This document shows, one piece after another, positions 16,768 through 50,661 of a stretch of DNA of 64,000 nucleotides (position 1 is its first letter; each line of letters begins with the position of its first letter). The notes below the pieces were generated by a model. That model made no database searches, had not been told where the DNA came from, and saw only the letters and a list, made by a program, of their open reading frames with translations. This stretch comes from an uncultured Candidatus Saccharibacteria bacterium (GTDB lineage: Bacteria > Patescibacteriota > Minisyncoccia > Phycocordibacterales > DATGWK01): contig CAYRZH010000003.1 of NCBI GenBank assembly GCA_964428845.1, positions 25,884-89,883 of the forward strand. The letters run 5' to 3'. Both the position numbers and the translations under genes were made by a program.

Positions 16768-17002
16768 GATTCTAGTATCGTGCTACGCCTTTGATAATTT
16801 TTGTCACTTTCGCATATAAAAAACGCCTCAAAAGAAAAAGCTGCCCTTGTGGATAAAGGGTTTGCTTGAAACTTTTTTGTTTATCTATTTTTTAGAGGCA
16901 ATTTCACTTAAAGGACCAATAAGCCTTGTAATCCTTCATTTTCCAGCCATAACTCAATCGTTTTGAAGTAGAGCCAAAGTATAGACGAGGCTGTTTTACC
17001 TG

Positions 17003-17665
17003 TCAAGCCGCTTTTCCACTGCTAGATCTTTTATTTCTCCAGATCTCAATTTTTTTGTGATTTCCAGAAAGAAGAACTTTAGGCACTCTGTACGTTCTTT
17101 TTTTGTAGACAAATGTCTCTGGTCTTGTGTAGACATCTCCACTGGCCACCCGTGATTCTTCAAGTGATGAGATGTTACCCAAAACTCCCGGCAACCTCCG
17201 AGCCACGGCATCTATGATGATCATCGCTGGTAATTCTCCTCCAGTGAGAACAAATGGCCCAATCGAAATCTCTTCCGCTTTAAATATTTTCTTTACCCTG
17301 GCATCAATCCCTTCGTAACGACCAGAAATGATGACAATATCTGTGTATTTTTTTACCACCAGGTCAGCGTATTTGTTTGTGAATTGTTTTCCGCCCGGCG
17401 AAAGAAAAATTATTTTCGCTTTTCCCTTTTTGCATTGACCCAGAGCTTTCTCGATAGCTTTTATCACGGGTTCTGGCCTTAGTACCATACCCGGTCCCCC
17501 ACCATAGGGTTTGTCGTCGATTCTCTTTTTTTTATTATTTTCAAAATTCTTTGGATCGTAGAATTTTATTTTAATTTTTTTGCTGACCTGGGCACGAGCA
17601 ATGAGCGACTCGGCCAAGTAAGAGCTAAACGCATCCGGGAATAATGTAATGATGTGAAAAGTCAT
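17003..17665 (-). CDS. trmD: tRNA (guanine37-N1)-methyltransferase
   Basis: MTFHIITLFPD N-terminus and an SPOUT-fold TrmD signature (GGGPGMVL, ISIGPFVLTGGELPAMIIIDA). Confidence 0.9.
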   Translation of the reverse strand: MTFHIITLFPDAFSSYLAESLIARAQVSKKIKIKFYDPKNFENNKKKRIDDKPYGGGPGMVLRPEPVIKAIEKALGQCKKGKAKIIFLSPGGKQFTNKYADLVVKKYTDIVIISGRYEGIDARVKKIFKAEEISIGPFVLTGGELPAMIIIDAVARRLPGVLGNISSLEESRVASGDVYTRPETFVYKKRTYRVPKVLLSGNHKKIEIWRNKRSSSGKAA

Positions 17666-18560: not shown

Positions 18561-18582
18561 TGGCGTATCTTAACAGATGATT

Positions 18583-18611
18583 GCTGGGGGGTCAATTAGG
18601 AGAGCAGGGGG
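18583..18611 (-). promoter_or_regulatory. Sigma-70-like promoter for rpsP (TTGACC-N17-TAAGAT on the minus strand)
   Basis: Reverse complement reads ttgacc ccccagcaatcatctgt taagat, ending about 15 nt before the rpsP ATG. Confidence 0.5.
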
Positions 18612-18623
18612 TCTGCTCTCACG

Positions 18624-18734
18624 GGGTCTTGAATAGATGCCTCGTCGAGCACGGATAAATTTTTGCTAAAATTTTCCTCGAGCTCGCGCCGTCGCGCTCG
18701 CTAGTCTCGCCTCGGCATCTATTCAAGACCCCCT
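18624..18734. repeat. Hairpin element copy 1: a roughly 110-nt element with 21-nt terminal inverted arms (gggtcttgaatagatgcctcg ... cgaggcatctattcaagaccc) and a conserved GC-rich core
   Basis: Aligns end to end with copies at 26265-26373 and 54584-54690. The arms are reverse complements of each other. Confidence 0.8.
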
Positions 18735-18883
18735 ATGTATAAATCTTCTTGCGGACTCCCCTCGAGTGATCTCTGTGGCGGACAGGCAGGCCGGTAAGGC
18801 AGAGTATTCAAGTATTCAAAATCCATTGGGCAAACCTCGACAAGATGGGCTCCAAAAAAACATCTTGGACAATTGCAGAAACG

Positions 18884-18912
18884 AAAAACCCCCCAGAAAA
18901 ACCTGGGGGGCT
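18884..18912 (-). terminator. Rho-independent terminator downstream of the island-1 gene
   Basis: Minus strand: ccccccagg ttttt ctgggggg followed by TTTTT. Confidence 0.7.
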
Positions 18913-18941
18913 GGATTGTTTACATGAACTAGACTTGACCT

Positions 18942-19649
18942 CTAGGTGGCTTGAGGGACGGCAACTGGTGTATGAGAACCGACTTGCGACACAGCGAACG
19001 CGAACCCGCGGTCACGAAGCCTCCCGCCGCCAGGCCTGCCGCTGCACGCGTTGAGCCAGCGACCACCGCCGACACGGTCCGCGCAGAGCAAGCGCGGATC
19101 GCCGACGGAGTCGTTGATGGGTTCGTGCATGGCAACGATGTACCACAGACCCATCGCTTCGATCTCCTTGTCCGTGAACTTCTCACGGATGAGGCAGGCC
19201 AGTTCGGCGTTCGGCTTCGAGAGCTTGCGTCTGTCGGCCTCGGCGCGGATCTTCTTCGTGGTCCGGTCGTTGTCCTCGAAGAGCATGCCCTTGAGAACGG
19301 CGACTTCGGTCGTCACGCCGCTCGTCGGCTTGAAGTCAGGGCTTCGGAGCACCTGCTTGGCGTAGTCACCCACACGGAGGCCTCTGCTTTTGAGTCGAGT
19401 GATCCAGGCTTTACCGGTCGTGCCGTCGCTCGTAACCCAGAAGTAGATGACGCCGCCTTCCTCGTGCCAACGCTTGGGGGGGTTGGAGAGCGGGAACGGA
19501 CCACGAATCGCGTCGGCAATTCTCACCTGCTCTACCACAGATGCGCCTCGAAATCTCTGCAGATCCGCTCGAGTGACACCCCTGACATCCAAGATCTCCA
19601 ATGTGGCCATGGCTTCCGAAATAGGTATTTCACTGACAAGGCTCCCCAT
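18942..19649 (-). CDS. High-GC island gene 1: hypothetical protein of an unrecognised family (paralog of 50662-51318 and 26555-27223)
   Basis: About 63% GC against an approximately 40% host. Strong SD (GGAAGGAGAcccaaATG). Shares a 331-bp identical block with 50803-51133. C-terminal motif AMHEPINDS...GGGRWL..C.GRP shared with the two other island genes. Confidence 0.7.
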   Translation of the reverse strand: MGSLVSEIPISEAMATLEILDVRGVTRADLQRFRGASVVEQVRIADAIRGPFPLSNPPKRWHEEGGVIYFWVTSDGTTGKAWITRLKSRGLRVGDYAKQVLRSPDFKPTSGVTTEVAVLKGMLFEDNDRTTKKIRAEADRRKLSKPNAELACLIREKFTDKEIEAMGLWYIVAMHEPINDSVGDPRLLCADRVGGGRWLNACSGRPGGGRLRDRGFAFAVSQVGSHTPVAVPQAT

Positions 19650-31238: not shown

Positions 31239-31315
31239 TTTTGATAAAAAACACTCTTTATAATTTTTAATTTTCCTTTTGCCAAACAGACTCAAAAAAA
31301 GCTATAATTTGCCTC

Positions 31316-33061
31316 ATGGATAAACACAGTGATCTAGGGGTGATGCGTCACTCCCTCGCCCACCTCCTCGCCGCCGCCGTCTTGGAGCTCTGGCCAGAGG
31401 CAAAGCCGACAGTCGGTCCGGCGATTGATACTGGTTTTTACTATGATTTTGACCTACCGACCCCCCTCTCCGATAAAGATCTCCCGAAAATAGAGACGCA
31501 GATGCGCAAAATTCTTCCCTCTTGGACTGCCTTCACCCGCAAGGAAGTTACTGAAAAAGAGTCGCGAAAACTTTTCAAAAAAAACCCGTACAAGCTCGAG
31601 CTCATAGACGACATTATAAAAAGTGGCGAGAAAATTACTCTCTACACTTCGGGAGACTTCACTGACCTATGTCGCGGCGGACATGTAGAAAATCCGGCAA
31701 AAGATATCAATCCAGAGAGTTTTAAACTAGAGCGTGTCGCTGGTGCCTATTGGCGCGGTGATGAGAAAAATAAAATGCTAACGCGTATTTATGGCTTGGC
31801 CTTTGGTAGCAAAAAAGAACTCGATGATTTTATCGCCCAAAGAGAAGAAGCAAAAAAACGTGATCACAAAAAGCTCGGCAAAGAGCTAGGCCTCTTCGTT
31901 TTCTCGGAGCTGGTAGGGCCAGGCCTCCCTCTCTGGACTCCGAAAGGCACCATTATCCGCGAGCTTCTGAACGACTACGTTTGGCAGTTGCGCAAAGAAA
32001 AGGGGTACATGAAGGTGGCAATCCCCCACATCACAAAGAAGGGACTCTATGAAATCTCTGGACACTGGACAAAGTTTGCCAACGAACTCTTCAAGATCAC
32101 CACCCGCGAGAACCACCTCTTTGCCATGAAGCCGATGAATTGCCCGCACCACACCCAAATATTTGCAAGCTCACCCAAGAGTTACCGCGACATGCCGCAG
32201 AGATATTGCGAGACCACCATGGTTTACCGCGACGAACAGTCTGGAGAACTTTCGGGTCTCTCGCGTGTCCTCTCTATCACCCAAGATGACGCCCACGTAT
32301 TTTGCAGGAAAAATCAGATCGAAGAAGAAGTTTTTGCCGTTTGGGATATTATTGACAAGTTCTACGGAGCCTTTGGCTTCGAACTTTCGGTACGCTTTTC
32401 AAAACACGATGACAAACATTTTGAGAAATACATCGGCACTCCAGAGATTTGGAAGAGCTCCGAAGAGCAGCTCCAGAGTCTTATAGAGAAGCGCGGTGTG
32501 GAGTGGGTAGACGGTGCGGGTGAAGCAGCTCTTTACGGACCAAAGATAGACTTTATGACCAAGGATTCAATAGGTAGAACTCTGCAGATCGCCACGATCC
32601 AGCTCGACTTCAATACCCCAAAAAGCTTTGACTTGGTCTGTGTAAATGAAAAGGGTGAGCGTGAACAGGTGGTGATGATCCATGCCGCCATCATGGGTTC
32701 GATAGAGAGATTTATGGGAACTTTGATCGAGCACTATGCTGGCGCGTTTCCAGTTTGGCTTTCCCCTGTTCAGATAAAGATTCTACCAGTCAGTGAAAAC
32801 CAATTTACCCTTGGAAAGGAAATTTTAAATGAATTTAAAAAACATGATATTCGCGCAGAGCTTGATCTCGACAACGAAGGACTTGGTAAGAAAGTCCGCA
32901 ACGCGAAAGTAGAAAAAGTGCCATACTTCATCGTCGTCGGAGAAAAAGAGGCTCAATCAAAAAGATTCAATCTTGAAAAGCGTGAGGGTGAGAAAACCGA
33001 GGGTTTGGAAATAGAAAATGTTGTAGGAAAACTTCTCGAGGAGATTATCAGCAAAAAATAA
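31316..33061 (+). CDS. thrS: Threonyl-tRNA synthetase, short form lacking the N-terminal TGS/editing extension
   Basis: MRHSLAHLLAAAV N-terminus, class II motifs, and an anticodon-binding C-terminus. Confidence 0.85.
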   Translation: MDKHSDLGVMRHSLAHLLAAAVLELWPEAKPTVGPAIDTGFYYDFDLPTPLSDKDLPKIETQMRKILPSWTAFTRKEVTEKESRKLFKKNPYKLELIDDIIKSGEKITLYTSGDFTDLCRGGHVENPAKDINPESFKLERVAGAYWRGDEKNKMLTRIYGLAFGSKKELDDFIAQREEAKKRDHKKLGKELGLFVFSELVGPGLPLWTPKGTIIRELLNDYVWQLRKEKGYMKVAIPHITKKGLYEISGHWTKFANELFKITTRENHLFAMKPMNCPHHTQIFASSPKSYRDMPQRYCETTMVYRDEQSGELSGLSRVLSITQDDAHVFCRKNQIEEEVFAVWDIIDKFYGAFGFELSVRFSKHDDKHFEKYIGTPEIWKSSEEQLQSLIEKRGVEWVDGAGEAALYGPKIDFMTKDSIGRTLQIATIQLDFNTPKSFDLVCVNEKGEREQVVMIHAAIMGSIERFMGTLIEHYAGAFPVWLSPVQIKILPVSENQFTLGKEILNEFKKHDIRAELDLDNEGLGKKVRNAKVEKVPYFIVVGEKEAQSKRFNLEKREGEKTEGLEIENVVGKLLEEIISKK

Positions 33062-33067
33062 TAAAAA

Positions 33068-33130
33068 AAGAACCCGCCCTGCCGACAGAGCGGGTTCCGA
33101 ATCCGCAGAACACCCACGGATTCTTCTTCG
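33068..33130. terminator. Tandem GC hairpins after thrS. A-run on the 5' side and T-rich 3' side, so it can terminate in both directions.
   Basis: gaacccgccctgccgacagagcgggttc and gaatccgcagaacacccacggattc stems. The minus-strand reading ends in TTTTTTT. Confidence 0.55.
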
Positions 33131-33303
33131 CCAAATCAGAATTGTATTTTTTAGTGCTCCTTAAGTCAAGACCCTACCAATCAAGAAAAACCCGCCCCGG
33201 ACCCTCCGCGAAGGAGGACGGAAGCGGGTTCCCACGATAGGCGACGATCGCCCACGTGTGCAAAAAATATCGTATTACATCTTTCGACCCAGATCAATCT
33301 CAT

Positions 33304-33442
33304 AAAAAAATGGGGCCCGCTCGCGCGAAGCGCAAACGGGCCCCGGGGGCGGGGGCTCTGTAATCCCCCCTGGCTACAGCCACCACCGCCTACCCCCCAA
33401 CGGTCCATCGGCATATTAAACTGAACACATTTTTTTGTCAAA
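33304..33442 (-). ncRNA. Candidate small RNA unit: a consensus promoter (TTGACA-N17-TAATAT at 33408-33442), about 95 nt of GC-rich structured sequence, then a terminator (ggggcccg...cgggcccc + T7 at 33304-33350)
   Basis: Promoter and terminator both read on the minus strand. No RBS-plus-ORF that avoids the terminator. Family unknown. Confidence 0.35.
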
Positions 33443-33490
33443 TGCTAGAAACGACCCGAGCATGCAGCACATTATCAAAAATTTAGATCA

Positions 33491-33523
33491 AAAAGGCCTG
33501 CCCACGCCATCGTGGACAGGCCG
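33491..33523 (-). terminator. Likely gyrB terminator
   Basis: ggcctgcccacg...cgtggacaggcc stem with T5 on the minus strand, 108 nt past the gyrB stop. Confidence 0.6.
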
Positions 33524-33630
33524 ATCTAGCCGACGGGCTCGCGGCACTTGGTCTAACGGCCCACCAAGCACTCACGTACACCCGCGGCAGATCCCCCCCG
33601 ATATAAAAAATACATTGTCCGCGACAAATG

Positions 33631-35736
<2,106 letters not shown>

Positions 35737-35891
35737 CTATCTGTAGCGCGAATCCGCCTATTACAGGCGGATGGTACTATCAAAAAAGCCTTATAATATA
35801 TGGTTATTTATTCATCAATTGTATCAAAGCCTCACCTTAAAAACAAGCCTAAAATGGCCTAAAATATGGGGGGTTGTGGGTAACTTTCTTG

Positions 35892-35919
35892 CTTGACAAA
35901 AAAATATTTAGGTGTATAA
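35892..35919 (+). promoter_or_regulatory. Consensus sigma-70 promoter (TTGACA-N16-TATAAT)
   Basis: cttgacaaaaaaatatttaggtgtataatg. Confidence 0.6.
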
Positions 35920-35996
35920 TGATGTCTAGAGATGCTGGAGAAGAGGCCCAATGGGGGCAGCACCAGCATCTTTGGCTCCTTTTAGGGGAGATGTCC

Positions 35997-36173
35997 CATG
36001 AGGCTTCGCATCGAGGGTGGCATGGTCTACGGCCCGAACGATCACAAGACGTTCGAGGATCTCCGTGAGGACGGGTTCTCCGAGAACCCGCCCGTCAGGG
36101 TGATCCGGCCGCGGACGAAGGCGAAGCGGTCTTCCGGGAATTCCCGGGTGACCAACGGCAAGCGGCAGCGCTA
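35997..36173 (+). CDS. High-GC small ORF (58 aa, MRLRIEGGMVYGPNDHKTFEDLREDGFSENPPVRVIRPRTKAKRSSGNSRVTNGKRQR) with a strongly basic C-terminus
   Basis: SD AGGGGAG 7 nt upstream. A consensus promoter lies 80 nt upstream and a strong terminator 47 nt downstream. Missed by the ORF track's 60-aa cutoff. The region could alternatively be a noncoding RNA. Confidence 0.4.
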
Positions 36174-36220
36174 GCCGGCCCAGGGGGGGACATCTACTGA
36201 CCTTTTGTTTCGGTCGGGAA

Positions 36221-36254
36221 AGGCTCGCGCTTGTTTGCGAGCCTTTTGTTTTTG
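36221..36254 (+). terminator. Rho-independent terminator
   Basis: aggctcgc gcttgttt gcgagcct followed by tttgttttt. Confidence 0.7.
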
Positions 36255-36262
36255 TAAAAAAA

Positions 36263-41493: not shown

Positions 41494-41569
41494 TGGAGCC
41501 ACCTCCCGGGCTTGAACCGGGGACCTATAGTTTACAAAACTATTGCTCTACCAACTGAGCTAAGGTGGC
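41494..41569 (-). tRNA. tRNA-Thr (anticodon UGU)
   Basis: Reverse complement GCCACCT-TA-GCTCAGTTGGTAGAGC-A-ATAGT-TTTGTAA-ACTAT-AGGTC-CCCGGTTCAAGCCCGGG-AGGTGGC-T-CCA folds as a cloverleaf with 7-bp acceptor, D, anticodon and T arms. CCA is encoded. Confidence 0.85.
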
Positions 41570-50445: not shown

Positions 50446-50454
50446 ATATTTATC

Positions 50455-50492
50455 AAAAGAAAAAAGCCCCGCAACCACGCGAGGCCTCCATG
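50455..50492 (-). terminator. Repeat A: terminator-like 38-mer (aaaagaaaaaagccccgcaaccacgcgaggcctccatg), repeated at 51897-51935
   Basis: Minus-strand reading gives an imperfect GC stem followed by T6. A second, 37-bp copy lies at 51897-51935, with a 1-nt indel and a few substitutions. Confidence 0.5.
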
Positions 50493-50585
50493 TTTACGTC
50501 TGGAATACGTTGCGACAATTTGCCGCGAGCAAAGGTCTAAAGTCAAAGGGTTCTACTGCCGATATAGGTATAACTGGTTTTATAT

Positions 50586-50625
50586 AAAAAATTCAGCCCT
50601 GCTCCGACGGATCGGAACAGGGCTA
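50586..50625 (-). terminator. Rho-independent terminator of island gene 3
   Basis: agccctg...cagggct stem and T-run on the minus strand. Confidence 0.65.
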
Positions 50626-50661
50626 AGGGCTAAGGCCAAAGGGACTGAAGTCCCGAGGGTC

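Follow-up and report, generated by a model that had tools for sequence, protein, structure and literature searches.

The intergenic spacer between thrS and gyrB is analyzed here within a 64-kb stretch of contig CAYRZH010000003.1 from an uncultured bacterium (the whole stretch is referred to below as the window, and all positions are those of the window). The two genes, both confirmed by Pfam, converge: thrS on the plus strand (31316-33061) and gyrB on the minus strand (33631-35727) face each other across 569 nt (33062-33630). By its gyrB and thrS sequences, the window is assigned to the Patescibacteria, or Candidate Phyla Radiation (CPR), class Paceibacteria, near Zambryskibacteria-like metagenome-assembled genomes. 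CPR genomes are small, and their assemblies usually carry no annotation of intergenic DNA. On the basis of its sequence signals, this spacer is resolved into four predicted head-to-tail modules on the minus strand, each built in the same way, and these are most likely unannotated small RNA (sRNA) genes.

Each module begins with an AT-rich promoter segment. Its GC-rich body comes next and comprises a 5' hairpin, a terminator hairpin joined directly to it without a linker, and a closing U-tract (Table 1). The G+C fraction of the spacer as a whole is 0.54, compared with 0.47 for thrS, 0.44 for gyrB, and 0.45 for the window. A first-pass annotation made from the DNA letters had described the spacer as far more GC-rich than its flanks, which is true of the four bodies (0.61 to 0.76) but not of the segments between them, which are AT-rich, at 0.33, 0.27, and 0.32 upstream of units 2, 3, and 4, respectively. 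Runs of G or C and the motif GUGGG are mildly enriched.

Table 1. Predicted promoters, RNAs, and structural elements of the four modules in the thrS-gyrB spacer, in the order in which minus-strand transcription would meet them
Feature	Coordinates	Strand	Sequence or structure	Scores
P1, promoter-like	33607-33634	-	TTGACA-16-TATTTT; -35 hexamer includes the gyrB TGA stop (33633-33631)	10/12
Unit 1, predicted RNA	33488-33601	-	~112 nt; unpaired 5' G7	body 70% GC; fold -66.9 kcal/mol, z -5.4
Unit 1, 5' hairpin	33593-33523	-	long, irregular
Unit 1, terminator stem	33522-33495	-	abuts 5' hairpin
Unit 1, U-tract	33494-33490	-
P2, promoter-like	33413-33441	-	TTGACA-17-TAATAT	10/12
Unit 2, predicted RNA	33304-33406	-	~102 nt	body 76% GC; z -3.7
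Unit 2, 5' hairpin	33395-33345	-	G-rich/C-rich
Unit 2, terminator stem	33344-33312	-	15 bp; abuts 5' hairpin	-33.6 kcal/mol
Unit 2, U-tract	33311-33304	-	A followed by U7
P3, promoter-like	33269-33297	-	TTGATC-17-TACGAT	weak, 8/12
Unit 3, predicted RNA	33186-33262	-	~75 nt	body 71% GC; z -4.4
Unit 3, 5' hairpin	33258-33233	-
Unit 3, terminator stem	33232-33187	-	apex CCUCCUU; abuts 5' hairpin; U-tract ends at 33186
P4, promoter-like	33141-33169	-	TTGACT-17-TACAAT	10/12
Unit 4, predicted RNA	33062-33134	-	~72 nt; unpaired 5' tail	body 61% GC; z -5.3
Unit 4, 5' hairpin	33123-33099	-
Unit 4, terminator stem	33098-33069	-	abuts 5' hairpin
Unit 4, U-tract	33068-33062	-	U7, reaching the thrS stop

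The four GC-rich stems with T-runs that had been reported for the minus strand are all present. They have the features of intrinsic terminators, with 12 to 15 stem pairs (20 in unit 3), free energies from -15.7 to -33.6 kcal/mol, and terminal runs of T5 to T7, and they follow one another at intervals of 110-190 nt. The hairpin of unit 2 is the strongest terminator-like structure in the window, and three spacer terminators (-33.6, -23.9, and -23.0 kcal/mol) are found within the window's top four together with one unrelated site (-27.0 kcal/mol); for the fourth spacer terminator, the inner stem scores -15.7. Terminator-like and promoter-like sites are both abundant in the 1.7 kb from 32500 to 34200, with 8 of the former versus 2.3 +/- 1.4 in shuffled sequences and 8 of the latter versus 2.1 +/- 1.4. 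Within the spacer, the scan reported no terminator-like site on the plus strand, and T-runs occur on the minus-strand side only, so the sites do not appear suited to bidirectional use. A hairpin at 33099-33123 on the plus strand, followed by UUCUUC, may be the sole terminator-like feature open to thrS.

Upstream of these terminators, the internal TTGACA-N17-TAATAT promoter recognized in the first-pass annotation is found as P2, but it is not the only one, as two further minus-strand sites that match the consensus at 10 of 12 positions (P1 and P4) had been overlooked. P3 is weak, lies below the scan threshold, and was read directly from the sequence. Sites scoring at least 10/12 number 24 on both strands of the window and three on a single strand of the spacer, where about 0.11 would be expected, corresponding to approximately 30 times the window density (Poisson P of ~2e-4 by our own estimate). 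The T-run ends 117, 109, and 78 nt from the -10 hexamer in units 1, 2, and 4, respectively. These are the shortest promoter-to-terminator distances in the window, and the only ones without intervening coding sequence; the other pair closer than 250 nt consists of the thrS promoter and a weak hairpin (-13 kcal/mol) 131 nt downstream, inside the thrS coding sequence. Units 1, 2, and 4 therefore each have a promoter of their own at an sRNA-like distance, as judged by consensus match, with activity predicted, and the corresponding site of unit 3 matches at 8/12. P1, P2, and P4 are near consensus for sigma-70-type promoters and are predicted to fire and to give rise to discrete RNAs.

The host plausibly uses this promoter consensus, since a TTGCCA-18-TATAAT site precedes thrS and a 12/12 site stands ahead of a small open reading frame (ORF) at 35998. 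In the plus-strand region 31279-31318, the thrS promoter-like element ends 7 nt before the ATG at 31316, so the thrS mRNA would lack a leader entirely or almost entirely, leaving no space for a T-box or an operator-type element.

The predicted RNAs are also distinguished by their folding. All four are more stable than shuffled sequences (z scores in Table 1), and for each the minus-strand fold exceeds the plus-strand fold in stability by 8-19 kcal/mol, as illustrated by unit 1, for which the plus-strand fold has only -48.3 kcal/mol. For the spacer as a whole, the values are -264 (minus) and -188 kcal/mol (plus). G·U pairs account for 24 of 136 pairs in the minus-strand folds compared with 1 of 105 in the plus-strand folds. 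Together, the difference in stability and the G·U asymmetry, which a DNA palindrome would not yield, point to selection acting on a minus-strand RNA rather than on a palindrome in the DNA.

None of the known RNA families accounts for the spacer. Rfam 15 gives no match there at the gathering threshold, the signal recognition particle (SRP) RNA, 6S RNA, RNase P RNA, and transfer-messenger RNA (tmRNA) included, and the same is true of the relatives' loci; relaxing the threshold to an E value of 10 or less adds only terminator look-alikes, with 14-23 bits in the spacer against thresholds of 39-70. ARAGORN likewise detects no tRNA or tmRNA in the spacer. The first-pass annotation, which had found no signature of tmRNA, SRP RNA, RNase P RNA, or 6S RNA, is thus borne out, and the outcome that it had named as counter-evidence, an Rfam match to a housekeeping RNA, did not occur. 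The sole RNA gene detectable by Rfam or ARAGORN in the window is a tRNA-Thr (anticodon TGT) at 41494-41569 on the minus strand.

There is similarly little indication of coding capacity, as neither strand of the spacer contains an ORF of at least 10 aa preceded by a Shine-Dalgarno (SD) sequence, and the three mechanical ORFs of the spacer have no Pfam match; by these measures the spacer is non-coding. A pseudogene remnant was rejected because the 9303 ORFs of 175 related loci, compared with the spacer by tblastn, returned chance-level matches only (best E value, 2e-4). Nor, within the 64 kb of the genome covered by the window, is the spacer a dispersed repeat of the REP (repetitive extragenic palindromic), BIME (bacterial interspersed mosaic element), or MITE (miniature inverted-repeat transposable element) type, as blastn against the window returns the spacer itself and its own hairpin arms. 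An origin from mobile elements was also rejected, the spacer having no match in phage and plasmid collections and its two strongest stems being absent from IMG/VR. Finally, the four units do not appear to be paralogues, with local alignment scores for all six pairs within the range of shuffles (units 3 and 4 being marginal, at 13 of 300 shuffles). Pairing of the units with the 5' regions of the window's genes by RNAduplex gave no outlier (|z| of about 2), in a crude comparison that is not meaningful for structured GC-rich RNAs.

In the first-pass annotation, the spacer was predicted to yield small structured minus-strand RNAs of about 95 nt. The kind of product is partly supported, and the negative Rfam and ARAGORN results, the promoter-to-terminator spacing, the strand-specific folds, and the lack of an SD-led ORF all agree with it; the number and size are revised here to four modules of ~72-112 nt, with a promoter of only 8/12 for unit 3. 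The feature itself is genuine and non-random, and the earlier idea was sound in outline, though incomplete. That the spacer represents four independent small non-coding transcription units, and hence four candidate sRNA genes on the gyrB strand, is a reading to which we assign about an even chance.

When the units are set beside characterized systems, both likeness and difference are apparent. An orphan promoter followed by a Rho-independent terminator was the criterion of early intergenic sRNA screens in E. coli (PMC4211561). The predicted units resemble such genes in having a sigma-70-like promoter, a structured non-coding body of 70-115 nt, an intrinsic terminator, and a location between protein genes, but differ in having no conserved seed or known chaperone context and in their CPR host. 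Tandem sibling sRNAs have been described as PrrF1/PrrF2 in Pseudomonas, OmrA/OmrB in E. coli, and AbcR1/AbcR2 in the Rhizobiales, and siblings of this kind are duplicates that are more than 65% identical or have identical blocks (PMC4211561). The arrangement in the spacer, with head-to-tail units in one intergenic region that each have their own promoter and terminator, is similar; in contrast to siblings, the four units have no significant mutual similarity.

A further parallel concerns unit 1, whose promoter lies over the gyrB stop and whose terminator is the first after gyrB, so that by position it has the attributes of an sRNA derived from a 3' untranslated region (3' UTR). sRNAs of the DapZ type are transcribed from their own promoter, located inside the preceding coding sequence or at its end, and have the terminator in common with the mRNA. 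Unit 1 is laid out in this way, as are the modules of three related loci (L163, L165, and L169; loci of relatives are designated here by L and a number), but unit 1 has neither a conserved seed nor an Hfq-type context, and the likeness is one of position only. Tandem intrinsic terminators are also found as T1 and T2 of rrnB. The spacer is comparable in its succession of strong hairpin and U-tract terminators in one orientation, and differs from rrnB T1-T2 in the near-consensus promoters and additional 5' hairpins that lie between its terminators.

Comparison with relatives places the locus in an evolutionary context. The closest gyrB sequences are at most 78% identical in genome contigs and at most 77% identical in metagenome contigs, and the closest thrS besides the source, from a search of 5.8 billion proteins, is 77% identical. 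Converging gyrB and thrS genes are widespread in the group, with spacers of 0-2.5 kb that often contain assorted small protein genes. We compared contigs of the nearest clade, in which thrS is 72-77% identical and which provide six distinct clade spacers. None of these spacers aligns with that of the window by blastn or nhmmer. A gyrB-strand module is nevertheless found in L162 (two modules; its spacer is identical to that of L173) and in L163, L165, L167, and L169/L170/L172 (one each). A strict scan, in which a promoter of at least 10/12 had to be followed within 50-170 nt by a terminator of -12 kcal/mol or lower, confined modules to the nearest clade (thrS 73-76% identical), with two in L161/L173 and one each in L163, L167, L169, and L170. 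No module emerged from the same scan in ~50 more distant spacers that have this gene order, and the thrS strand lacked modules in every spacer. Module type and position are thus kept in the nearest clade only, and the bodies cannot be aligned with those of the window.

Among the relatives themselves, partial homology is detectable. L162 and L167 have in common an extended -10 element (GTGTATTATA) and a homologous terminator. The RNAs of L163, L165, and L169 are weakly homologous, with common GAGACGAACCUC...AGGUG...CUC-CCGCG blocks. A covariance model, R1, built from the L169-type RNA matched L165 and L163 weakly (E values of 0.003 and 0.05, respectively, in a small search without filters, and 0.089 and 1.5 in the full search) and had no match in the window or the other 160 loci; MAFFT gave no useful alignment of the relatives' RNAs.

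The relatives' loci also contain small genes. In L171 (4756-5121, gyrB strand), a TTGACA-17-TAGTAT promoter is followed by AAGGAGG-N5-GTG, a 55-aa ORF with a hydrophobic stretch, and a terminator, and in unit 2 of L162 (3132-3416), GGAGG-N-ATG leads into a hydrophobic ORF of 30 aa that extends through the unit's terminator. Other spacer genes include a 240-aa ORF in L165 and a methyltransferase in L175. On the other side of thrS, 8 of 10 distinct informative loci of L161-L175 have a minus-strand gene of 140-203 aa directly upstream of thrS, with L171 as the exception and L173 uninformative. This gene has a faint N_methyl/pilin-like match in L161/L162, and in contigs that extend far enough upstream it is flanked by dnaE and thrS. 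It is not present in the window, where only 31239-31315 separates the end of dnaE (31238) from the start of thrS (31316).

Several of these results weigh against the interpretation of the units as sRNA genes. The four bodies have no homologue in the 175 related loci, the rest of the window, or phages and plasmids, nor, for the two stems searched, in IMG/VR. Within the nearest clade, promoters and terminators are conserved while the bodies diverge, and such divergence would be no less likely in function-free DNA lying between two signals than in fast-evolving sRNAs. In L163, L165, and L169, the -35 hexamer TTGACA is forced by the C-terminal GyrB codons ATT GAC ATT (IDI*) and is therefore weaker as independent evidence in those loci. 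In the window, GyrB ends in IDFNA*, and TTGACA spans GCT TGA CA, a codon context unlike that of the relatives, so that here, in favor of the sRNA reading, coding is not enough to explain the hexamer. The relatives give a mixed picture of the G·U strand asymmetry, with 18/199 versus 10/187 overall and no asymmetry in L167 and L169. Finally, a unit at this position has a small ORF behind an SD-like motif in L171 (55 aa) and in unit 2 of L162 (30 aa), so the slot is not exclusively non-coding.

The first alternative to be considered, which we regard as unlikely but as the most probable of the rivals, is that the spacer is the 3' UTR of gyrB with a redundant one-way stack of terminators that, between two converging essential genes, insulates thrS from antisense read-through, its promoter-like hexamers being incidental to AT-rich linkers or acting only as roadblocks to thrS read-through, and that it has no RNA function. 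Such an insulator would fit with the single direction of all four terminators, the last of which ends at the thrS stop, with the lack of a canonical plus-strand thrS terminator in the spacer, with the poor promoter of unit 3, and with the conservation of terminators but not of bodies among near relatives. It would be excessive, however, in that one terminator of -24 kcal/mol located 110 nt past gyrB would suffice, as in the single-module relatives, and the additional stable 5' hairpin of each unit is not needed for termination. Also speaking against this reading are the 10/12 promoters, three of which crowd a single strand of the 569-nt spacer at ~30-fold the density of the window, each at an sRNA-like distance from the next terminator.

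It could alternatively be speculated, with lower probability, that the modules are empty shells of lost small-gene cassettes, in which the genes were deleted and the promoters and terminators were left behind. The small genes held in the spacers of relatives (the 55-aa ORF of L171, the 240-aa ORF of L165, the methyltransferase of L175, and the 30-aa ORF in unit 2 of L162) and spacer lengths that vary between 0 and 2.5 kb in the wider group are what such a history would leave, but no trace of the genes is seen, as the 9303 relatives' ORFs match at chance level only, and bodies of 61-76% GC in a genome of 45% GC that fold well above shuffles are the opposite of decay.

Very unlikely, in our estimation, is that the units encode very small proteins of fewer than 35 aa without a recognizable SD. 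Leaderless translation is plausible in this organism given that 7 nt separate the -10 hexamer of thrS from its ATG, the predicted start region of unit 2 reads AUGCCGAUGG, and the 30-aa hydrophobic ORF in unit 2 of L162 lies behind GGAGG-N-ATG; against this, no SD-preceded ORF of at least 10 aa is found, the long mechanical ORFs cross terminators and unit boundaries and have no Pfam match, and the reading frames are rich in Gly, Arg, and Pro, as translated GC-rich hairpins would be. Least probable of all is an element acting at the DNA level, such as REP/BIME-like or MITE palindromes or recombination sites, or a divergent housekeeping RNA, as the GC-rich imperfect palindromes at gene 3' ends beside gyrB may recall the REP/BIME elements of E. 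coli, which bind gyrase, but have no further copies in the window and a 24:1 G·U asymmetry that favors RNA, and the spacer matches no tRNA, tmRNA, or known Rfam family even at an E value of 10 or less.

If the units are sRNA genes, a mechanism can be proposed from their layout. Unit 1 would start at the promoter over the gyrB stop and end at the first terminator met by gyrB transcription, and could thus double as the gyrB 3' UTR and terminator and as a 3' UTR-type sRNA with its own promoter. At the other end of the cluster, the terminator of unit 4 would halt minus-strand transcription exactly at the thrS stop, so that no antisense minus-strand transcription would extend into thrS. Over its full length, the unit 4 RNA would be antisense to whatever 3' UTR thrS has, and it may serve as a cis-antisense regulator of the thrS 3' end. 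Unit 3 may be read through from unit 2, or may be a decayed or backup terminator module; it could conceivably be expressed, as PrrH is, by transcription past an internal terminator. The four sequence-unrelated RNAs would most likely be regulatory sRNAs that act through base-pairing or protein binding.

It is also conceivable, and for now doubtful, that the 3' end of gyrB in this sub-clade is a conserved slot, in which a promoter and terminator persist, the body turns over, and modules expand from one to four. Such a slot would be a nursery for new sRNA genes or, alternatively, a site of sequence-independent counter-transcription that buffers gyrB and thrS by roadblocking thrS read-through or shaping supercoiling at gyrB.

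Other intergenic regions of the window contain features of their own. In the pheT-gyrB spacer (35728-36262), the plus-strand region 35893-36253 begins with a 12/12 promoter, TTGACA-16-TATAAT (35893-35920), and includes a GC-rich 58-aa ORF at 35998-36174 (MRLRIEGGMVYGPNDHKTFEDL...) with an SD-like AGGGGAG upstream, a terminator at 36222-36253, and no Pfam match. This ORF is divergent from gyrB and lies within the would-be gyrB upstream region; the gyrB-pheT gap is also large in relatives (937 nt in L162). On the minus strand, the gap 18574-18950 contains, at 18600-18760, a perfect inverted repeat of 19 bp (GGGGUCUUGAAUAGAUGCC / GGCAUCUAUUCAAGACCCC) that surrounds ~70 nt, with a second hairpin after it; the region has a minimum free energy of -75.2 kcal/mol (z -7.9) and no Rfam match at the gathering threshold, and a separate minus-strand terminator is present at 18884-18910. 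The minus-strand region 50446-50661 contains two terminators ~100 nt apart, at 50626-50586 (-27 kcal/mol) and 50485-50460 (-12.9 kcal/mol), with a weak TTGACT...CAAATT promoter-like stretch between them, and may be a small orphan unit. At 16768-17006, also on the minus strand, an 11/12 promoter, TTGACA-17-TATACT (17006-16978), is separated by ~210 nt from the next ORF downstream on that strand, with a weak hairpin and T-run at 16872-16818. The region has no Rfam match and may be a long structured leader.

RNA-based regulation in Patescibacteria/CPR is, to our knowledge, little charted, and a full-text literature search for small-RNA work in this group returned nothing relevant. Should the units not be expressed, the locus would still be a clean case of stacked one-way terminators between converging genes. 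The compact cluster of four units beside two essential genes provides sRNA candidates in CPR at the level of coordinates, and the comparison with relatives suggests that a module is retained in place as its content changes, which bears on how sRNA genes are born and lost.

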